A stretch of 29,531 bases of DNA from a virus (Duplodnaviria; Heunggongvirae; Uroviricota; Caudoviricetes), in the IMG/VR virus record IMGVR_UViG_648276670_000001, positions 1 to 29,531 of that record; one strand, 5' to 3'. Both the position numbers and the translations under genes were made by a program. Positions within the stretch are counted from its first letter, which is position 1; every line of letters begins with the position of its first letter. This document shows, one piece after another, positions 1 to 29,531 of the stretch. A model generated the notes under the pieces. It did no database searches. It saw only the letters and a program-made list of their open reading frames with translations, and was not told the DNA's origin.

Positions 1-471
<471 letters not shown>

Positions 472-481
472 GTTTCCCTCC

Positions 482-2251
482 TCAGTTGCCGTTAACAATG
501 CTGATAACGCTGCTGCGGGCCGGCGTGGTCAGCGTGGCCATGACTTCATCCAGTGCGGCTTCCGGTACGCCGTCCGGATACTGTGCCGTTAACTGGCGGT
601 AATGTTCCGGCGTCCAGGTAAGGCCGTCGGCGCTGAACTTATCGCGCAGGGCTTTCGCGGCCTCCACATGAGTCATGGGACGTTGTTCAGTGCGCAGCCC
701 GCGTACGTCAGAGGCCTGACCTCGCTTCGGTATACAGGCCGGAAGTGTGGCGTCATCAATATGTTTATATGGGTCAAGCCGCCCGCCGAACGGCAGCGCC
801 TTCGCCTTGCGTGCGGCAGCTGCATCTGCGGCGTTGTCTGTACCGGTGACCAGCGCTTCGGTTTCTTTTGCCGCCATCTGCGCCGGGGTTTCCGGCAGGG
901 CTTTGTAACTTTCGCCAAATACCGCCGCGCTTTCAGCAAAGCCAAACTCGTTCTTTCTGACCTCTTCGACCAGGAAGAACGCCTCGTGGCCGTCCTCACC
1001 GGTCAGAACCACCTGTGCCACATCGCTGCGCCACGGGTTACGGGTAATCATCAGTTTTTCACCGACCAGTACGCCCGGTACCGTTGATACGTCAAATTCA
1101 GTGCCCCGGAACGAGACACGAAGTTTTGGCGTGACTTTGCGGAGTTCTGGTGTCGCCACAGCCAGTTCACGGCATACCTCAACGGAAGGCGCTTTTTTCA
1201 GCTGCTCAGCAGTAATCTTCAGCCAGATATCCGTGCGGGTTTTACCGTGGCGGCTGTGAACAGCCGTGGCGTTAAAGTGGCTGCGCCATTTCGCGGCCAG
1301 CGCGTTGAGTTCTTCCAGACTGTGAACCGGCCGGAACTTCAGACCCGGCTCCAGCTTGCGTTCGATAATGTCACGCGCCTTTTCCACCTGTCCGGTGGCG
1401 CGGGCGTTATGCGGCTTGTGTGCTATCAGGTCGATGCCCAGTGAGCGGCACATGTTTTTCGTCATACCCGCGGTGTTTGCCGAGCCGGGGTCGAGATAGA
1501 GTATTTTCGGCACGCCGTGCAGCACGTCTGCGCCGCCACGCTCCTGCATGGCGTTGATAAGCACAGAACACAGGTTCTCACCGGATTCCGCACCCGTCAC
1601 ATACTCAACGTAAATCCAGCCGCTGGCATGGTCGGTAATCTCGTAACTCCACACGCGGTCACTGGCGATACGGGCAAGGTTAGCGGGCTTGTTCTTGTAG
1701 AACTTCGCGCTGTCCATCACCTGCAGTCCTTTGTGTCCATTACTCAGGTAGTAAAGCGTGCAGAGCGAGGCATCAATCTGCCAGACATGATTGGGATGCA
1801 GACTGGCCACTTCAGTATGTGGTGCAGGGGCATCCAGTTGTTCCGGGTGCAGGCCATAGTTACGCAGGGCTCGGCTGATGGCATCTTCGGACAACGGGAA
1901 AAACTCACCGGTGGTTTCATCTGTTCTGCCTGCGGAGATAAAGCCGTTAGCCCGCAGGGTTTCCACTGCATCCGCGATGGAATAGAGACGCTTACCGTTC
2001 TTGCGGGTGGCCTCACGCAGTGTGGCAGATATCAGCGCGGCTTCGTCGCGGGTCAGGGCGCTGCGCCCGGCATCGGCGCGTTTTTTGCGTTTATCAGTCA
2101 CAGAGACCTCCTTCAGCCTGCGCAGCAGAGTGGCGCGGGACATGCCAAGTTCAGCACAGGCAGCGTCGTATATTGCACCGCGTTTACCATGCCCCGCGTC
2201 ACGTGCCGCGCGGGCGACATAAACCAGTCGTTCAGTCAGGGCAGCATTCAT
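482..2251 (-). CDS. DDE transposase, rve/integrase-core type (Tn552/BcepMu TnpA-like), 589 aa
   Basis: Long ORF with GGAGGC Shine-Dalgarno; catalytic-core-like motifs HVWQID, YLDPGSANT and GQVEKAR; sits in a Mu-like early operon immediately upstream of the B-like gene. Confidence 0.85.
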   Translation of the reverse strand: MNAALTERLVYVARAARDAGHGKRGAIYDAACAELGMSRATLLRRLKEVSVTDKRKKRADAGRSALTRDEAALISATLREATRKNGKRLYSIADAVETLRANGFISAGRTDETTGEFFPLSEDAISRALRNYGLHPEQLDAPAPHTEVASLHPNHVWQIDASLCTLYYLSNGHKGLQVMDSAKFYKNKPANLARIASDRVWSYEITDHASGWIYVEYVTGAESGENLCSVLINAMQERGGADVLHGVPKILYLDPGSANTAGMTKNMCRSLGIDLIAHKPHNARATGQVEKARDIIERKLEPGLKFRPVHSLEELNALAAKWRSHFNATAVHSRHGKTRTDIWLKITAEQLKKAPSVEVCRELAVATPELRKVTPKLRVSFRGTEFDVSTVPGVLVGEKLMITRNPWRSDVAQVVLTGEDGHEAFFLVEEVRKNEFGFAESAAVFGESYKALPETPAQMAAKETEALVTGTDNAADAAAARKAKALPFGGRLDPYKHIDDATLPACIPKRGQASDVRGLRTEQRPMTHVEAAKALRDKFSADGLTWTPEHYRQLTAQYPDGVPEAALDEVMATLTTPARSSVISIVNGN

Positions 2252-2254
2252 TGG

Positions 2255-3166
2255 TTATGCCTCCAGCCCGTTAATCTGTGGCGTCGGCTCAGTCAGCCAT
2301 GAAGGCGCTGCATTGCCTGTTGGCTCGTCCGGCAGGTCAAATGTGGAGCGCAGGCTACGCGCTGTGCTTTCCAGTTGACAGACCAGGCCTGCCATGAAGT
2401 CTCTGGGGGTATCAATCATGTTTTCAGCACAATATGCGCACAGTGTCTCAAAAGCGCTGGACAGTCGAACGGCGATAGCAGATTCCGCCTCAACCGCTAA
2501 TGCTGTCACTTCCGCCCGCAGCTTCTTAACCTCCTCATCAGGCTCAGGCGGCTGAATACGGGATTTCTTTTCCAGTCTGGTAGAGAGAGAATCAATTTTT
2601 TCATTTTTATCGGCGAGTACGCGCTGTTGTGCTGCGTTGGTTTCGCGCGCTTCGCGCAGGGCCTGGCGAAGTTCGCGTACTGACATGCGATCAACGTCGT
2701 CAAGCGTCAGGCCGGCAACTGTGCCGCCGTCAGCCAGTTCGGCAAGCTCTTCGTCGTCTTCTGTCATTAATTCGAAAAGTTTGGCTTTTCCCAAATGTGC
2801 CAACGTTGGCACATTTGGTTTCAGCGCCGGGGATAAGTATTTTGTCGATGCTTGCATCATTCTCACAGATGTCCGGTATGCCAGCCCCAACTCACTTTCA
2901 AGAATCTTTATAAACTCCCCGTGTGGTTCATTTTCCTTAAGGATTATCAGCCGCTTACCTGCCTCCAGCATGGCCTCAGCGCTCTGTGCCATATAAAAGC
3001 GTGCCTCATGGACAACACGATCGCGCTCATAGGGCAGACCATCGCCGAACTGTTGCATGATTTCCATGCGATGCTGTGTCATGGCGTTTAGACTGACATT
3101 GAGATCATCCGACAGCGGTACCTCGACGTTCAGTTCAGTGCTAACCGGTGATTTGGTGCGTCCCAT
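2255..3166 (-). CDS. Hypothetical early-operon protein, 303 aa, function unknown
   Basis: ORF with AAGGAG Shine-Dalgarno 6 nt upstream; stop abuts the transposase start; acidic, coiled-coil-rich sequence; no motif recognised. Confidence 0.6.
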   Translation of the reverse strand: MGRTKSPVSTELNVEVPLSDDLNVSLNAMTQHRMEIMQQFGDGLPYERDRVVHEARFYMAQSAEAMLEAGKRLIILKENEPHGEFIKILESELGLAYRTSVRMMQASTKYLSPALKPNVPTLAHLGKAKLFELMTEDDEELAELADGGTVAGLTLDDVDRMSVRELRQALREARETNAAQQRVLADKNEKIDSLSTRLEKKSRIQPPEPDEEVKKLRAEVTALAVEAESAIAVRLSSAFETLCAYCAENMIDTPRDFMAGLVCQLESTARSLRSTFDLPDEPTGNAAPSWLTEPTPQINGLEA

Positions 3167-3176
3167 TGATTACTCC

Positions 3177-3485
3177 TTACAAACGACTACCTGAAATAAC
3201 ACGTTGGTTGATTTCGTTAATGCGATCCTGTGCACGTGCCATCTCGTTACTGTGGGCCATGGCGATCTGCAGCAACTGGATGCCTGGTGCGAAACGCCCG
3301 TTTTCTAGTTTCAGAGCCAACCCTTCTTCAATGAGCGTGTTAAGTGCCCGGTTGATGTTTGCCGGTGATTCGTGCAGCGCAACCGCTAGTTCCCCGTTAG
3401 AAACACCGTTCAAAGCGTGGCCACGTAAGGCCTTAAGAACGCGCAAAATACGGGTACCTGAGCTTGATGTATTTGGTTTATTCAT
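3177..3485 (-). CDS. Small winged-helix/HTH transcriptional regulator, 102 aa
   Basis: AAGGAG Shine-Dalgarno; start overlaps the upstream gene stop (ATGA); HTH-like segment GVSNGELAVALHESPANINRALNTLIEEG. Confidence 0.55.
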   Translation of the reverse strand: MNKPNTSSSGTRILRVLKALRGHALNGVSNGELAVALHESPANINRALNTLIEEGLALKLENGRFAPGIQLLQIAMAHSNEMARAQDRINEINQRVISGSRL

Positions 3486-3712
3486 GACGCCTCCTTAAGG
3501 ATACCGGGGGTAACTTCTTTACCTATTGCAACCGATAGATCTCGCAAAATCCGATAAGTCAAACGACCGCGAGGTAGTTCACTTTTACCAGCCCAGCGAC
3601 TGACTGCCTGGGTGACTGTTCGTGGTTCATAGCCCGCGTTAAGCGCGAACTGGCGCAAGCTACTGCCTCGTTCAACCAGCCGTGCCCGAACTTGTTGTTT
3701 GTTCATATGCAC
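3482..3712 (-). CDS. ner: Ner-like small DNA-binding protein (Mu Ner/Nlp family), about 75 aa
   Basis: Size, position as first gene of the early operon divergent from the repressor, and HTH segment SLRQFALNAGYEPRTVTQAVSRW resembling Ner; start may be GTG 3710-3712 or ATG 3704-3706. Confidence 0.6.
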   Translation of the reverse strand: MHMNKQQVRARLVERGSSLRQFALNAGYEPRTVTQAVSRWAGKSELPRGRLTYRILRDLSVAIGKEVTPGILKEAS

Positions 3713-3794
3713 CGTGTTCCTGTTAGGTTATGATGTACTCTATTGGGTCTATTGTACACACCCAAATGAGTGTGTCAAATTGAGATATGTTCAA
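3713..3794. promoter_or_regulatory. Divergent early/repressor promoter-operator region
   Basis: AT-rich intergenic region between divergent ner-like and repressor genes; direct repeats TCTATTG at 3739-3745 and 3748-3754 flanked by TGTAC/GTACA, and ACACAC...GTGTGT inverted elements at 3756-3776. Confidence 0.4.
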
Positions 3795-4202
3795 ATGAGT
3801 ACAAAAGAGAGATTGCGTGAAGTGATGGATGCTAATGGCATGACAATAAAGGCATTATCTGACTTATCAAAAATTCCATATCGCTCACTTCAAAACTATT
3901 TGCGTGGAGAGAGAGAACCAAACGCAGAGGCTCTTGTTGCGCTAAGTGCCCATTTGGGTGTATCGATCGATTGGCTACTTACCGGTAAAGAACATATTCC
4001 ATCTAAAGAAATTGTTGCTGTACCAACACAACATCAATTCAGCCCGTCAGACCTTAAAATGCTTGAACTTCTAAACCAGTTAGATCCTGAGGTTCGGCGA
4101 GATCTCATGCGAGGCGCTGAAGAAAAACAGCGTGTGATTGAGATGGAAAAACAACTGAAGGAATTATCCGCAACGATTGAGCGGTTAAAAAATGTGGGTT
4201 AA
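3795..4202 (+). CDS. Prophage repressor-like XRE-family HTH protein, about 135 aa
   Basis: HTH motif TIKALSDLSKIPYRSLQNYLRGEREPNAEALVALSAHLGVSIDWLL plus C-terminal coiled coil; divergent from the early operon. The ORF-track start at TTG 3699 adds a hydrophobic extension that overlaps the operator region and is probably spurious. Confidence 0.7.
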   Translation: MSTKERLREVMDANGMTIKALSDLSKIPYRSLQNYLRGEREPNAEALVALSAHLGVSIDWLLTGKEHIPSKEIVAVPTQHQFSPSDLKMLELLNQLDPEVRRDLMRGAEEKQRVIEMEKQLKELSATIERLKNVG

Positions 4203-4272
4203 TGTGTTCCTAACGAGAACATATAGCAGAAATTATTTGCCATTAAGCAATAAAAAATAAGGTGGATAGCCA

Positions 4273-5280
4273 ATGTCTGAGCAGACCATTGAAGTTAAAC
4301 ACGTTGTAGTTCACATTTTAGACAAACAACAAAATGGAGACGCTTCTGAGAGATTGAGTCCTGAAGAAGGTCTAGTTACTGAAGCCTCTCAGCGCCTTAT
4401 AAACGATATTTGTGCAAAATATGCAGGACGCACAGGTAAAGGTTATGGCTATTTTGAAGGCGATACGGATAACTATCCTATGGAACGAATGGCTGGGGAC
4501 TTTCTCGAAGGTGTTGATGATTTCTACCAAAGTTCCTGCCGAATGATGCATCACCTGACGGAACGTTCTCAGCGAGAAAACATGGCTACTGGTGGTTATG
4601 TTCTTTTTGCAAATATCGTGATAGGACACAATGAACACCTGTTGATAGCTATTGTAAGCGCTACCATTGGGTCCACTGTCACAGATGATTTTAACATCCA
4701 AGATAGTACCTATCTTGATATTGCTAAGCTGCGTATGGCTGGGCGCATTGACTTAACCGCGTGGGAAAGTGGCGCAGAGCGCTATATCAGTTTTCTTAAG
4801 GGGCAAGGTAATGTTTCAAACTATTTTAAACAGTTCCTAGGCTGTAATGATGTCTTAATCGCCAAACGAGAGTCTGAAAAGTTACGTGACGTTTTAAAAG
4901 CATTTGCGGCAGAGAAAGGACTTGACGGCGCTGAAAAAGATGCATTTCTTAAGAGTGCGTTTGAACACTTACATGCACTAAGTAAGGCTGGTGAACCACT
5001 TAGTCTTGAAACCCTTGTTAATGCCATTTGGCCCCAGGCTCCCGAGGAGTTATCTGGTAAACTTGCTGCTGAAGAGTTGGAGTTATCGGATGGCTTCGTT
5101 CCTGATGGTCGAGTCATTCGGGCTCTGGTATCTTTTAAAGGCAAGTCTAAATATTGGGAACTTAAGTTTGACCGGGAAGGGAAAACTGAAGGCTATATTG
5201 ATTATGATCCGGAAACAAATATTATCACCCTACGTAATGTACCTGAAGAATTTAGGGAAATGTGGATGACTGAGGTTTAA
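4273..5280 (+). CDS. NdpA/YejK-family nucleoid-associated protein homolog, 335 aa
   Basis: AAGGTGGA Shine-Dalgarno 8 nt upstream; full-length resemblance to the YejK/NdpA family (GGYVLFANIV, TYLDIAKLRMAGRIDLTAWESGAERYISFLKGQG, C-terminal NIITLRNVPEEFRE); AT-rich codon usage unlike the flanking phage genes. Confidence 0.85.
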   Translation: MSEQTIEVKHVVVHILDKQQNGDASERLSPEEGLVTEASQRLINDICAKYAGRTGKGYGYFEGDTDNYPMERMAGDFLEGVDDFYQSSCRMMHHLTERSQRENMATGGYVLFANIVIGHNEHLLIAIVSATIGSTVTDDFNIQDSTYLDIAKLRMAGRIDLTAWESGAERYISFLKGQGNVSNYFKQFLGCNDVLIAKRESEKLRDVLKAFAAEKGLDGAEKDAFLKSAFEHLHALSKAGEPLSLETLVNAIWPQAPEELSGKLAAEELELSDGFVPDGRVIRALVSFKGKSKYWELKFDREGKTEGYIDYDPETNIITLRNVPEEFREMWMTEV

Positions 5281-5282
5281 TC

Positions 5283-6488
5283 GTGGCGATTTCATTTGAG
5301 ATGCTGACAGCTCTGTATCGTCGTATGGAATTCCAAGAGGGGTTTCGTGTCGGTTCGCTGTTGCTCTTAGATCAGTCCGATTGTGATCTGGTTGATACTT
5401 TGCTTGATGATCCTCGTGAATATGGTCTTTCTATTGATACAGGCACTATCGCTCCAGGTAACACGATCATCCTACGTGTGACGTCACCACGGAGTGGACT
5501 GGGACTTGTGTTTTCCACCCATGAAAAATTGCTAAATGCTCCAAAGCATCAGTGCCTTGAGCCAGCTAATTACTTCATCCTAGAAACAAAATTTCGTAAT
5601 GATGATGAAGATATCCCCGTTTTCATCAGCAACTACCGGAAGATTCTCGAGTTCGTTAACCTGCTAAAAGAGGCCGCGGCCTACTTTGATAACTCAACTT
5701 GTCAGTTAGTTTTTCTGAAAAAAGAAGTTATCAAGCTATTACCGCACTTCGCTGCAGAAAATGTACAAAATTTGCAAAGGGAGTATCTTGATAACCTTAT
5801 AGCTTGTTTCAATGATGATACCCATAAGGATCAGAAGCTAGATATTCTGATTGAAAGTATTCAAGCAGTTAGTGATGGAATTGATTCACCTCTAGTATTC
5901 GCTTATTTACTGGACAATATTCAGCGTCTGCATGAAAAGTTTCTGAAAGGGTATCGTATCTACTCTTCTGGATTCTCTTATGACAAAGTAATGGATCAAC
6001 TGCGTGCTGCAAAAGTCGAAGAAATGGGTAAAATCCACAAAGCGTTTTCAGATATCCAGAACCATATACTTGGCATTCCTGTTGCCTCTGTTATCGTAGC
6101 TACCCAATTCAAAGTGGCTACGAAATGGTCAGGCCAAGGGATAACAAACACAATAATTCTTCTGGGATGCATTTTTGCTGCAACGTTAATCTGGCTGGCA
6201 CTTTCGAACCAGATGCAATCTATAAAGGCCTTAGGCGAAGAAATTGAATACAAAGAAAAACAGATTAATAAGGAATATTCCTTCATTAAAGATGACGTGG
6301 CTGGTGTATTTAGCAGTATTTCTGCGCGACTAGACACGCAGAAACGTACGTTCTGGATTATACGTGGTGTTCTAGTTATGGGAATTATTACCGCTATCAC
6401 TGTTTATTTTTGGTACACAAAACCAGCCCTTGACTTCATGCAGTACTTGATTCACTGCATGAAGTCTTACTATTCGGTCAAAAGTTGA
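5283..6488 (+). CDS. Unknown 401-aa protein with two C-terminal transmembrane helices
   Basis: GTG start 2 nt after the NdpA-like stop with GAGG 7 nt upstream (translational coupling); hydrophobic helices ITNTIILLGCIFAATLIWLAL and FWIIRGVLVMGIITAITVYFWY; AT-rich; no catalytic motif recognised. Confidence 0.7.
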   Translation: MAISFEMLTALYRRMEFQEGFRVGSLLLLDQSDCDLVDTLLDDPREYGLSIDTGTIAPGNTIILRVTSPRSGLGLVFSTHEKLLNAPKHQCLEPANYFILETKFRNDDEDIPVFISNYRKILEFVNLLKEAAAYFDNSTCQLVFLKKEVIKLLPHFAAENVQNLQREYLDNLIACFNDDTHKDQKLDILIESIQAVSDGIDSPLVFAYLLDNIQRLHEKFLKGYRIYSSGFSYDKVMDQLRAAKVEEMGKIHKAFSDIQNHILGIPVASVIVATQFKVATKWSGQGITNTIILLGCIFAATLIWLALSNQMQSIKALGEEIEYKEKQINKEYSFIKDDVAGVFSSISARLDTQKRTFWIIRGVLVMGIITAITVYFWYTKPALDFMQYLIHCMKSYYSVKS

Positions 6489-7248
6489 GGATAATGAGTT
6501 CCTTCTTGCGACTGGATTTGCCAGTGATCTTGAGGTTGTAGCTGATATCAACCGACTGAATATTTAGACCGTTGAATGCCTGCCGCATTTCCGGGATATC
6601 GTTCACCGATATAATCATCTTCCCTTTGATCCTGCGTGCTAAATCTGCCATATGATCATAATTTTCTAGTCCGAACTCCACACCATAACCTTCCGTTCCC
6701 CAGTATGGAGGGTCACAGTAGAACAACGTATGCGGGCGATCATATCGTTCTATGCACTGTTGCCAGTCCATGTGTTCTATGACCGTTCTGGAAAGCCGCA
6801 GGTGTGCCGCTGACAGTTCTTCTTCAATACGCAGCAGGTTGAAGCGTGGCGGGGATATGGTGGAGGTACCAAAGCTGTGCTCCGCCACCTTGCCCCCAAA
6901 CGCCTGCTTCTGAAGGTAGTAGAACCGTGCTGCACGCTGGATATCCGTCAGTGTTTCTTCCGGGGTGATCTGCAGCCATTTGTAGATCTGCCGGCTGACC
7001 AGCGCCCATTTGAACTGGCGTACAAATTCTTCCAGATGATGTTTTACCACCCGATACAGGTTCACCAGCTCACCGTTGATATCATTAATGACTTCGATCT
7101 TGCCGGGTACCTTAAGAAAATAGAGCGCTGCTGCCCCACAAAACGGCTCCACATAACATTCATGCGCCGGAAACAGCGGCAGGATGTGTTTTGCAAGGCG
7201 GCGTTTGCCACCAATCCATGGAACGATGGGTAATGTCTGCATTTTCAT
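6478..7248 (-). CDS. dam: Dam-like N6-adenine DNA methyltransferase, 256 aa
   Basis: Motif I-like PFCGAAALYF and catalytic DPPY (YCDPPYWGTEGY) in the order typical of Dam-type enzymes; convergent with the upstream gene, 3' ends overlapping by 11 bp. Confidence 0.9.
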   Translation of the reverse strand: MKMQTLPIVPWIGGKRRLAKHILPLFPAHECYVEPFCGAAALYFLKVPGKIEVINDINGELVNLYRVVKHHLEEFVRQFKWALVSRQIYKWLQITPEETLTDIQRAARFYYLQKQAFGGKVAEHSFGTSTISPPRFNLLRIEEELSAAHLRLSRTVIEHMDWQQCIERYDRPHTLFYCDPPYWGTEGYGVEFGLENYDHMADLARRIKGKMIISVNDIPEMRQAFNGLNIQSVDISYNLKITGKSSRKKELIILNF

Positions 7249-7495
7249 AATCTGTAAGCCTTTTACAATTATAAAAAATATGGCAGGCTAGTCTGGTCTC
7301 GCGAGACTGACTGAACCTTGGTCGGCTCACAGCGCATTCCTGTGGGGCGATGGCCAGCCCGGTGTTCGGGTACCGGGCTGGTCGTTCTTTCAAAGCCATC
7401 ATGCAGTGCACGTTTACATCTTCACTATTAACGCTGTTTAAAATCCGTATCCCGCCACATTTGTGATGCTGTCTCCACCAAACGAGGAGACACAC
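7249..7495. promoter_or_regulatory. Divergent intergenic region between the methyltransferase and lysis genes, containing a perfect 12-bp palindrome
   Basis: GTCTCGCGAGAC at 7296-7307; a minus-strand TATAAT (plus 7268-7273) about 20 nt upstream of the methyltransferase ATG with a poor -35; GAGGAG Shine-Dalgarno at 7484-7489 for the downstream gene. Confidence 0.35.
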
Positions 7496-7846
7496 ATGAA
7501 AAACCTGAAAAAATTCATTCCCCCTGTTAAAAAACCTCGCCTCAGCGGCTGGCTGCTGACCTCAGTGCTGTTGCTGGGCATCATCGCTCTGGTCTCGCCA
7601 CAGCAGTTGCCTGTTGTGATCTACAAGCTGGCACTCATCACGCTGGCAGCAGTGCTGGGTTACTGGCTTGACCGTTCGCTCTTCCCCAAAGCCCGTCCCG
7701 GTCAGTACCTGAAACATGACAACAGACTGATGGCTGAAGGGCGTTTCCCTGTGCAGACCGGCCTTCACCTTGTATTTTCTGCTGCGTTAATCCGCCGTGC
7801 ACTGATTGTTGCAGCGGTCTGTCTGGCTGTGGCAACAGGACTGTGA
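7496..7846 (+). CDS. Small membrane protein, candidate holin, about 116 aa
   Basis: GAGGAG Shine-Dalgarno 6 nt upstream of ATG 7496; three hydrophobic segments; immediately precedes the endolysin gene with overlapping stop and start. Confidence 0.5.
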   Translation: MKNLKKFIPPVKKPRLSGWLLTSVLLLGIIALVSPQQLPVVIYKLALITLAAVLGYWLDRSLFPKARPGQYLKHDNRLMAEGRFPVQTGLHLVFSAALIRRALIVAAVCLAVATGL

Positions 7847-7848
7847 CC

Positions 7849-8577
7849 ATGAACTGGCCTCAAATCACCCTCATTATTCTGTTCGCCTTTGGTCTGGGCG
7901 TAACCGCCATCAGACACGGAGAACCACGTAACGATAAATACAGCTTCTGGTGGCAGCTTGCTGGCAACCTGGTGATTGTCTGGCTGCTCTGGTGTGGCGG
8001 CTTCTTCAGTCAGGCCCGCGCAGCGCAGCCTCCGCAGGCTGCGCTGCAGTATCGCGATGATGTGATCCGTAATGCCCGGCTTGAATGGGGACTGTCTGCG
8101 CCGGTGGCCGATTTCGCCGCGCAACTGCATCAGGAAAGCGGCTGGCGACCTGATGCGGTCTCGCCGGCTGGCGCTCAGGGACTGGCGCAGTTCATGCCTG
8201 CCACTGCCGACTGGATAAGCCAGTTGATACCGATGCTGAGCAGTCGTGAGCCGTTTAATCCTGCATGGGCTATCCGGGCGCTGGTCAGCTATGACCGCTG
8301 GCTGTGGCAGCGCGTCAGCGCCGCCAACGACTGCGAGCGTATGGCCATGACACTGTCGGGCTATAACGGTGGTCTGGGCTGGGTACAACGGGACAGGCGG
8401 CTTGCATCACAGAAAGGTCTGGACAGCACCCGCTGGTTCGGACATGTCGCCACGGTGAATGCCGGACGCAATGCGGCCAGCTGGCGGGAGAACCGCCATT
8501 ATCCGCAGCGCATCCTGCGCGAACTGGCACCGCGATATCTCACATGGGGAGGCAGCAGTTGTGTGGCATCTGGTTAA
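7849..8577 (+). CDS. Endolysin, lytic transglycosylase (SLT domain) with N-terminal hydrophobic, possibly SAR-type, region
   Basis: SLT-like motifs LHQESGWRPDAVSPAGAQGLAQFMPATA; N-terminal 55 aa contain two hydrophobic stretches; ATG 7849 follows the upstream stop (alternative GTG 7843). Confidence 0.8.
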   Translation: MNWPQITLIILFAFGLGVTAIRHGEPRNDKYSFWWQLAGNLVIVWLLWCGGFFSQARAAQPPQAALQYRDDVIRNARLEWGLSAPVADFAAQLHQESGWRPDAVSPAGAQGLAQFMPATADWISQLIPMLSSREPFNPAWAIRALVSYDRWLWQRVSAANDCERMAMTLSGYNGGLGWVQRDRRLASQKGLDSTRWFGHVATVNAGRNAASWRENRHYPQRILRELAPRYLTWGGSSCVASG

Positions 8578-28677: not shown

Positions 28678-29531
28678 ATGGCAAATCTACCCGAAACCCC
28701 GCAGTGGGAAAGCGGCATCTACCAGATTGAGGTCTCTGACCCCGTTCTGGGCGGACCTGACGGAATTTCTAACCGCCAGGCTAAACAACTGGCCAGCCGA
28801 ACGTCATACCTCAAACAGAAGGTCGAAAAAAGCGGAACAGACCTGGCTGCACATATCGCGGCAGTTGACCCGCATACCCAGTACGCGACGAAAGCCAGTC
28901 CGACATTCACCGGCACACCAACAGCACCTACACCTGCAAATGGTGATAACAGCAAAAAGCTGGCGACGACGGAGTTTGTGGCCAAAGCACTTGCGGCACT
29001 TGCAGGCAGCGCCCCTGAGACACTGGATACGCTTAAAGAGCTGGCTGACGCTCTCGGTAATGATCCAAACTTTGCGACTACGGTACTGAACAAGCTGGCG
29101 GAAAAGCTGGCTAAAGACCAGAACGGCGCAGATATTCCTGAGCCTGCGCTGTTTGTCAAAAACCTTGGTTTGGGGGAAGGCTCTGCACTGCCCGTTGGTG
29201 TGCCCGTTCCGTGGCCCTTAGCAACACCACCAACGGGCTGGCTGAAATGTAACGGTGCAGCATTTTCTTCTGAAATGTACCCCAAACTGGCAAAAGCCTA
29301 CCCCGCGAATAAATTACCGGATTTACGCGGAGAATTTATCCGTGGCTGGGATGATGGGCGAGGAATTGATGCGGCACGCGCTTTATTGAGCATTCAAAAC
29401 GGGATGTTGGAAAAACACCGCCATATTGTTGTAGCTAACGATGGATATGACACAAAAGATGAATGGGAGTTGGCTACGATTTTCAAAAAAACATATACAC
29501 AAGGCAGGGGGCTTGATGCCACAAATACAGG
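28678..29531 (+). CDS. Tail fibre protein, N-terminal part (3' end beyond the window)
   Basis: Frame open from ATG 28678 to the window end (hand-translated; absent from the ORF track because it has no stop); conserved fibre N-terminus MANLPETPQWESGIYQIEVSDPVLGGPDGISNRQAKQLASRTSYLKQKVE and collar-like motif LPDLRGEFIRGWDDGRGID. Confidence 0.8.
   Translation, partial: MANLPETPQWESGIYQIEVSDPVLGGPDGISNRQAKQLASRTSYLKQKVEKSGTDLAAHIAAVDPHTQYATKASPTFTGTPTAPTPANGDNSKKLATTEFVAKALAALAGSAPETLDTLKELADALGNDPNFATTVLNKLAEKLAKDQNGADIPEPALFVKNLGLGEGSALPVGVPVPWPLATPPTGWLKCNGAAFSSEMYPKLAKAYPANKLPDLRGEFIRGWDDGRGIDAARALLSIQNGMLEKHRHIVVANDGYDTKDEWELATIFKKTYTQGRGLDATNT

Follow-up and report, generated by a model that had tools for sequence, protein, structure and literature searches.

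The window analysed here is the whole 29,531-nucleotide (nt) stretch of virus record IMGVR_UViG_648276670_000001. It was identified as Escherichia coli chromosomal DNA with a BcepMu-like transposable myovirus prophage. Directly downstream of the prophage repressor gene, a two-gene cassette encodes a nucleoid-associated protein of the NA37/YejK family (protein 1, from gene 1) and a membrane protein (protein 2, from gene 2). Sequence comparison with DS-1 and the architecture of type II PANGU place this pair in the DS-1/type II PANGU class as a divergent, prophage-borne member, and the pair is no new kind of system. The parts of the cassette are listed below, with protein lengths in amino acids (aa).

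4203-4272, plus strand: spacer of 70 nt from the repressor gene to gene 1, without terminator or hairpin
4273-5280, plus strand: gene 1, NA37/YejK-family nucleoid-associated protein (DS-1A/Pag2A-like), 335 aa, ATG start, TAA stop
5278-5285, plus strand: gene junction, with TAA, a 2-nt spacer (TC) and GTG; GAGG lies 7 nt upstream of the start
5283-6488, plus strand: gene 2, DS-1B/Pag2B-like membrane protein, 401 aa, GTG start, TGA stop

The cassette and its two proteins

The coordinates, the starts and the 2-nt gap given by an earlier first-pass annotation of this DNA were re-read in the sequence, and the RefSeq annotation of identical copies uses the same starts for both genes. Each start (4273 and 5283) has a good Shine-Dalgarno sequence upstream, AAGGTGG for gene 1 and GAGG for gene 2. 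The junction at 5278-5285 fits translational coupling of the pair. The cassette had also been described as AT-rich and as lying between the repressor and the lysis module, and both descriptions were confirmed. Its GC content is 41.2%, compared with 56.1% in the rest of the prophage; the GC content at third codon positions is 0.35-0.39, compared with 0.64-0.66. The cassette is the lowest-GC 2.2-kb stretch of the window, with the repressor gene on one side and the holin/SLT lysis genes on the other.

In the profile search, protein 1 matched Pfam NA37 (PF04245) with an E value of 1e-80 and 272.1 bits (gathering threshold 24.6) over model positions 1-324 of 325. The likeness to NdpA/YejK claimed earlier for the whole reading frame 4273-5280 is thereby verified. 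Protein 1 belongs to phrog_3767 (E 7e-117), and it matches the solved structure of E. coli YejK (NdpA; PDB 9be2; Schumacher et al., NAR 2024) with an E value of 6.8e-30. Against the NCBIfam YejK model NF001557 it scored 186 bits, and the equivalog cutoff of 341 was not reached. Judged by these scores, protein 1 is a full-length NA37/YejK protein, yet no YejK orthologue. The two proteins share the full-length NA37 fold and an acidic character overall. They differ in setting, as YejK is encoded by a stand-alone chromosomal housekeeping gene and has no membrane partner, whereas protein 1 has one. The DefensePredictor tables include WP_077474557.1, a relative of protein 1, among the predicted defence genes.

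No domain was found in protein 2 by the Pfam search, in line with the earlier description of a 401-aa protein without a recognised motif. Protein 2 belongs to phrog_5023 (E 2e-142). Its family was measured as 166 close matches in a word-indexed search and as 1,281 representatives at 50% identity (E <= 1e-3) in an exhaustive profile search. The AlphaFold2 models of protein 2 have a predicted local distance difference test score of 82 at full length and 93.9 for the N-terminal domain, with a predicted template modelling score of 0.88. The model shows a globular alpha/beta N-terminal domain (aa 1-212), followed by a very long helix (213-274) that runs into the first transmembrane (TM) helix. After TM1 come a tight turn, TM2, a 46-aa helix (310-355) and TM3. 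The parts of protein 2 are as follows.

aa 1-212: acidic N-terminal domain (N-domain)
aa 213-261: juxtamembrane helix
aa 262-280: TM1
aa 289-309: TM2
aa 356-378: TM3

The first-pass annotation had predicted two TM helices at the C-terminus. Their location was correct and their number was not, since three were found. By the positive-inside rule, the N-domain and the helix 310-355 are predicted to be cytoplasmic. The N-domain has an isoelectric point (pI) of 4.59 and a net charge of -14, and the median pI in the family is 4.93. Within the family, pairwise identity is 0.64 in the juxtamembrane helix, 0.54 in TM1-TM2 and 0.36 in the N-domain. The invariant residues include G223, Y224, F231, S232, Y233, K235, K250, D257 and I258, as well as Q259, P266, N309 and Q310.

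The gene order was compared in a locus scan with one genome per species, by which 65 loci were returned. The informative loci (n = 57) were those with a full-length protein 2 homologue and upstream DNA present. In 57/57 of them the partner gene is immediately preceded by a same-strand NA37 gene that abuts or overlaps it. The co-occurrence elsewhere on which the first-pass annotation had staked its proposal was thus found. The loci outside the 57 either lie at contig edges or, in three Cupriavidus genomes, hold a truncated remnant of 208 aa. No conserved third gene was identified, the next commonest neighbour cluster being present at 9 loci and the Dam cluster at 5. The pairwise distances of the two proteins co-vary with a Mantel r of 0.94, and 0/2,000 permutations gave a value as high. 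The ratio of nonsynonymous to synonymous substitution rates was 0.034-0.036 for gene 1 and 0.069-0.089 for gene 2. Both genes are under strong purifying selection.

The pair is present in about 10 BcepMu-like prophages of distant hosts (Enterobacterales, Chitinimonas, Jeongeupia, Rhodoferax, Alishewanella and Terasakiispira), in the same slot and with divergent alleles included (loci L052 and L057). It was also found in lambdoid regions beside antiterminator Q and DUF968, at loci that adjoin tyrosine-integrase genes, and in Sinorhizobium, Klebsiella and Acinetobacter phages. When the nucleotide sequence of the cassette was compared with sequenced phages, one 147-nt match was found and nothing more. 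The pair is a strictly two-gene, co-evolving and mobile unit.

Some variants of the two genes were observed during the scan. In Acinetobacter phage MD-2021a (L004, 3779-5657), the ndpA/partner pair is followed by an overlapping same-strand gene for a 210-aa protein with no Pfam match, which hints at a three-gene variant in some lineages. Some partner-linked NA37 proteins (L030, 4641-5951; L064, 4629-5807; L038, 4803-5999) carry N-terminal extensions of 50-100 aa, so that the NA37 domain begins at aa 52 or 104. These extensions recall the zinc ribbon of DS-1A described below; longest-ORF start calling may account for part of their length. The Cupriavidus genomes (L041, L042 and L043, all at 5992-6618) share an identical 208-aa open reading frame that covers only the equivalent of aa 191-392 of protein 2, that is, the juxtamembrane helix and the TM region. 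It has no NA37 gene and no N-domain, and could be a conserved remnant or else an independent TM module.

Relation to DS-1 and type II PANGU

DS-1 (clone D390) is a two-gene E. coli anti-phage system discovered with DefensePredictor (DeWeirdt et al., Science 2026, PMC13092281). Its first protein, DS-1A (WP_000355468.1), has 391 aa with a zinc ribbon and an NA37 domain, and its second, DS-1B (WP_000150292.1), is a 404-aa hypothetical protein (PMC13092281). When assayed from its native promoter on a low-copy plasmid, DS-1 reduced the efficiency of plating of Bas1 by 10^7.6, Bas26 by 10^2.7, Bas3 by 10^1.7, T3 by 10^1.7, T5 by 10^1.0 and T7 by 10^0.9; the screen table has no T4 row (PMC13092281).

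Both proteins of the window were found to match the NCBIfam models built for this system. Protein 1 matched DS1_1_antiphage (NF053868) with E 1.4e-17 and 63.7 bits, over aa 33-258 only. Protein 2 matched DS1_2_antiphage (NF053869) with E 3e-21 and 75.9 bits, its aa 74-366 aligning with profile positions 31-329 of 337. The second profile matched 37/37 protein 2 family members tested, with a best E of 2.4e-27. BLASTP gave colinear alignments at 23% identity for protein 1 against DS-1A (E 8e-9) and for protein 2 against DS-1B (over 302 residues, E 6e-10). The hhalign comparison of the protein 2 profile with DS-1B gave a probability of 95.8% and an E value of 7.8e-9 over 273 columns. The loci L045-L068 are intermediate, with similarity both to protein 2 of the window (about 1e-30) and to DS-1B (down to 4e-18). 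Because these loci bridge them, the window pair and DS-1 are, on the alignments, two ends of one superfamily; the pair is homologous to DS-1 at the superfamily level and below the equivalog level.

The likeness extends to the organisation of the genes. In DS-1 the NA37 gene also comes first and the gene for a partner of about 400 aa comes second, with the same 2-nt junction (221777/221780). DS-1B resembles protein 2 in its acidic N-domain, its hydrophobic helices at the C-terminus and the conserved FSxxK...IP motif block. Its hydrophobic segments are weaker than those of protein 2, and the window allele differs in being prophage-borne in a repressor-proximal slot.

Type II PANGU pairs a YejK-like nucleoid-associated protein (NAP), Pag2A, with an effector, Pag2B, that begins with an acidic 'DNA-mimicking' (DMK) domain and ends in a TM domain (Li et al., bioRxiv 10.64898/2026.04.06.716658). 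These operons, Cluster 2 of the NAP operons in that study, occur across phyla and are mobile; they were selected near defence islands with a spacing below 40 bp as the operon criterion. In the E. coli system PANGU-Ecu, both genes are required against T4, the single genes are non-toxic, and the phenotype is abortive-infection-like at a multiplicity of infection of 10. Pag2A-GFP sits on the nucleoid before infection and departs on infection, and Pag2A binds the acidic N-domain of Pag2B with a KD of 19 nM. T4 escapes through mutations in denA, which encodes EndoII. The model of the authors is that degradation of host DNA by the phage releases the NAP, which then engages the acidic domain of the membrane effector and causes abortive infection (Li et al., bioRxiv 10.64898/2026.04.06.716658).

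The window pair has the full architecture of type II PANGU. Its NAP is YejK-like, its spacing of 2 nt lies within the 40-bp bicistronic limit, and its partner combines an acidic N-domain with three C-terminal TM helices. The setting is different, as the published operons were chosen near defence islands and the window pair lies inside a prophage, and the EndoII-dependent trigger is known only for T4 acting on PANGU-Ecu.

Taken together, the pair is probably a prophage-carried two-gene abortive-infection system of the DS-1/type II PANGU kind. We infer anti-phage activity of the window allele from the homologous system and from the system of like architecture. The first-pass annotation had recognised no named defence system in this pairing, which no longer holds; its guess of a defence function was a good one. 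It had proposed more specifically that a DNA-binding sensor and a membrane effector bring about superinfection exclusion or abortive infection, and this is likewise supported by the DS-1 homology and the PANGU architecture.

The proposed mechanism is as follows. In the uninfected lysogen, the gene 1 product would be held on the chromosome as a dimeric DNA clamp of the YejK type. The gene 2 product would sit in the inner membrane with its acidic, putatively DNA-mimicking N-domain towards the cytoplasm. The presumed trigger is the breakdown of the host chromosome by a superinfecting lytic phage, on which the clamp protein would lose its DNA and would then bind the acidic N-domain of the membrane protein. 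The co-divergence of the two proteins (Mantel r 0.94) lends indirect support to this part of the model. The juxtamembrane helix and the three TM helices would form the effector and would be switched on by clamp binding. Most likely, this TM module would damage the inner membrane, and phage production would be stopped at the cost of the cell. Membrane damage is suggested by the lack of an enzyme-like fold, the three-TM architecture with polar invariant residues, and the conservation peak in this core.

Kiwa was considered as another known system, since KwaA is a membrane protein that forms a defence pair with the DNA-binding protein KwaB. The PADLOC KwaA model gave a weak match to aa 262-394 of protein 2 (21 bits, E 8e-5), and protein 1 had no PADLOC match and no KwaB/DUF4868 signal. 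The KwaA match was present in only 2-3 of 37 family members, and no Kiwa structure was among the Foldseek PDB matches. Kinship with Kiwa was therefore rejected, and the match was attributed to compositional similarity of TM helices.

Several points weigh against the abortive-infection reading. Both proteins missed the equivalog cutoffs of the NCBIfam DS-1 models (63.7 vs 330 bits and 75.9 vs 315 bits), an identity of just about 23% to the DS-1 proteins is very low, and DS-1A has an N-terminal zinc ribbon that is absent from protein 1, which is nearer to YejK (186 bits). The pair is likened to Pag2A/Pag2B by architecture and not by sequence, and the activation and action of Pag2B were left unexplained (Li et al., bioRxiv 10.64898/2026.04.06.716658). 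The triggers may differ between subfamilies, as PANGU-Ecu blocks T4 and DS-1 was reported without a T4 row. In consensus scans for a promoter of the cassette's own, no more promoter-like sites were found than in shuffled sequence. The last point concerns DNA binding. YejK is a dimeric DNA clamp with a pore lined by R173/R176/K177 and R276/R280/K284, and DNA binding was abolished in the R173/R176/K177 triple alanine mutant (PMC11229321). At these three positions protein 1 has Q, a deletion and N. Nucleoid binding by protein 1 is not assured, because the basic patch of the N-domain that YejK needs for DNA binding is lost from its sequence. Protein 1 keeps K171, R280 and a basic-rich patch of the C-domain, in which the remaining basic residues are shifted by 1-2 positions. 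Among 59 partner-linked NA37 proteins, K171 is nearly invariant, position 173 is R/K in 41/59, position 177 is mostly acidic, and the C-domain patch has a median of 5 K/R.

The same residues bear on a defence of reversed logic. Here, in resting cells, the clamp would be kept at the membrane by the DNA-mimic domain of protein 2, and phage DNA arriving at the injection site would compete for it. The entry of foreign DNA would thus be sensed directly and infection excluded, and no degradation of the host genome would be needed. This idea is favoured by the three missing pore residues, which make stable nucleoid binding doubtful, and by the tight binding of Pag2A to the acidic domain (19 nM), compared with the micromolar Kd of YejK for DNA (PMC11229321). 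The strong effect of DS-1 on siphoviruses such as Bas1, in a screen without a T4 row, points in the same direction. However, in the one type II system studied, Pag2A-GFP was nucleoid-bound before infection and T4 escaped via denA. In addition, protein 1 retains the basic-rich patch of its C-domain, and the sequence gives no direct support for such an order of events. We consider the reversed order unlikely, and the release of the clamp from a degraded chromosome is kept as the preferred sequence of events.

The variable cargo slot

The slot downstream of the repressor gene was compared across sister prophages whose flanks match. Such prophages without the pair are carried by about 500 E. coli genomes, ST131 among them. 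The contents of four slots, which correspond to window positions 4203-7462, are as follows.

L070 (ST131), 1301-3824: nothing downstream of the repressor
L071, 1359-3962: proteins of 328 and 203 aa plus DUF2441
L072, 1364-1891: a 175-aa protein
L073, 1458-2748: proteins of 297 and 145 aa

Since its contents differ between sister prophages, the slot is a variable site for cargo in this prophage family. The alternative cargoes gave no defence match against NCBIfam and PADLOC, only one weak Flk-like N-terminus. The strict synteny of the pair, its mobility and its position in the variable slot bear out the first-pass view of the cassette as a horizontally acquired accessory operon. The sister prophages also have a second variable block, with three small genes, between Dam and the holin gene.

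The convergent Dam-family gene downstream shares its last 11 nt with the end of gene 2 (6478-6488). The first-pass annotation had described the cassette as closed off by this gene. The convergent orientation is correct; the gene is neither a boundary nor a part of the module. Dam is prophage backbone outside the module, since it is kept in 3/4 sister prophage types that are without the NA37 pair (L070, L072 and L073). In Sinorhizobium phage phi2LM21, an unrelated alphaproteobacterial phage, a trio of NA37 gene, partner gene and convergent adenine methyltransferase gene was observed (p68-p66; L002, 628-3718). This trio may be a coincidence or a recurrent cargo neighbourhood. It prompted a test of Dam as a third component, which was rejected, as Dam is linked in 5/68 loci and is kept in the sister prophages without the pair.

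Transcription of the pair was considered from the same arrangement. The spacer 4203-4272 contains no terminator-like site and no inverted repeat between the repressor gene and gene 1. The last ~40 nt of this spacer, including the Shine-Dalgarno sequence, are conserved in Brenneria and Pectobacterium loci with different upstream genes; these ~40 nt before the ATG appear to move along with the cassette between prophages. No terminator was found on either strand of the convergent overlap at 6478-6488, and gene 2 and Dam could interfere with each other through convergent transcription. A near-consensus sigma-70 promoter-like site (TTGACA-16-TACAAT, 11/12) was observed on the minus strand at 3778->3751, divergent from the repressor gene. 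From its sequence it is likely the early promoter/operator region of the prophage, reading into the ner-like/early operon.

In lambda, the rexA-rexB genes form a two-gene exclusion/abortive-infection module of the prophage directly downstream of the cI repressor gene and on the same strand, with RexA as a cytoplasmic sensor and RexB as an inner-membrane effector. By this analogy, it is reasonable to infer that the repressor promoter supplies the transcription of the window pair in the lysogen by read-through, and the pair would probably be co-transcribed with the prophage repressor as rexAB is with cI. The analogy concerns the way of working. There is no kinship of sequence or fold. RexB has four TM helices and lacks a large cytoplasmic domain, and RexA does not belong to the NA37 family.

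The recurrence of the pair in one slot of transposable prophages bears on whether it serves the phage's own cycle. In that case it would organise or protect the prophage or the transposing DNA, or tune prophage expression, and would have no part in defence. The occupation of the same slot in ~10 BcepMu-like transposable prophages of distant hosts, with divergent alleles, is consistent with such a role, and Mu-type transposition depends on nucleoid proteins. There is also a precedent in the integrative and conjugative element PAPI-1, where the NA37 protein NdpA2, encoded by the mobile element, activates transfer genes together with TprA (PMC8565334). However, the partner of NdpA2 is an Arc-like DNA binder, unlike the membrane protein of the window (PMC8565334). 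Furthermore, the ~500 E. coli genomes whose sister prophages lack the pair show that it is dispensable for the phage, the pair is also found in lambdoid prophages and integrase islands, and the homologous DS-1 defends outside any phage context. A role in the phage's own cycle is therefore improbable.

Under the abortive-infection reading, the association has another explanation. Since a transposable phage multiplies by transposing into the host chromosome and needs it intact, it would leave its own sensor untriggered. That such a phage spares the chromosome would account for the module's long association with the transposable phage lineage. A further version treats the pair as an immune module matched to the lifestyle of its carrier. 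In it, the clamp would be parked on the DNA-mimic domain, a state of the DNA (incoming linear phage DNA or a fragmented chromosome) would pull it off, and the juxtamembrane/TM core, once freed, would form a novel kind of pore. This module would not perceive the transposable prophage, as the prophage neither degrades the host chromosome nor replicates as free linear DNA. Such a non-PANGU route is conceivable because the basic patch of the clamp's N-domain is lost and because the module is kept in transposable phages across beta- and gamma-proteobacteria; we regard it as a rather doubtful possibility, and the PANGU-like course of events is still preferred.

New here are the evidence for synteny and co-evolution across the family, the topology with three TM helices and the map of conservation along the effector. 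The partial loss of residues with which YejK binds DNA, the cargo slot next to the repressor in a prophage family common in E. coli and the exclusion of Dam are also new. The phrog_5023 family, with no Pfam domain and ~1,280 clusters at 50% identity, is placed together with its NA37 partners in the DS-1/type II PANGU class. Temperate phages, above all transposable Mu-like ones, are thus seen to carry this class in a repressor-proximal cargo slot. The analysis suggests a reason why a phage that needs the host chromosome intact should encode a sensor of its destruction. The window pair provides a natural, probably lysogen-expressed allele for studying the action of the membrane effector. The alternative cargoes in the slot (~500 E. 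coli genomes, including ST131) are candidate defence or moron genes.

The surrounding prophage

The features on either side of the cassette are context and lie outside the module.

3795-4202, plus strand: HTH_3/CI-like prophage repressor gene (Pfam HTH_3 and Phage_CI_repr; RefSeq start)
6478-7248, minus strand: Dam-family adenine methyltransferase gene (TIGR00571 dam, 116.9 bits, above cutoff)
7463-8577: holin/SLT lysis genes

The prophage encodes an rve transposase, an ExeA/MuB-like ATPase and Gam, together with ner-like/CI-like regulators and a DUF3102 protein. It also encodes a holin, an SLT endolysin, a spanin, a DUF935 portal protein, P2-like tail and baseplate proteins and an invertase. 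The prophage of strain MS20655 is 99.5% identical to window 317-29374, and the exact cassette was found in 19/5,426 complete E. coli genomes.

Window positions 1-316 are the 3' end of an IS21-family element, with an IstB-like open reading frame at 69-254. This element is inserted ~155 bp into the MuB-like ExeA gene of the prophage, which is intact in MS20655. Because the MuB-like gene is interrupted, the prophage copy in the window is probably transposition-defective, with the cassette still intact.

An intact cassette in a crippled prophage is one of two observations that fit an addiction module of the toxin-antitoxin type, by which the prophage would be stabilised; the membrane protein would act as the toxin, and its antidote would be the NA37 protein. 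The other is the two-gene, translationally coupled operon on a mobile element with the membrane protein second. However, the single genes of PANGU-Ecu are non-toxic and its NAP acts as an activator and not as an antidote, DS-1 was maintained with no toxicity reported, and sister prophages readily occur without the module. Addiction is therefore very unlikely, and an abortive-infection function is preferred here as well.

At the other end of the window, a segment of ~211 nt (29160-29370) matches the tail-fibre genes' region of the MS20655 prophage at 3 sites and in both orientations, beside a recombinase gene. An invertible tail-fibre segment that acts as a G-segment-like host-range switch would fit this arrangement.

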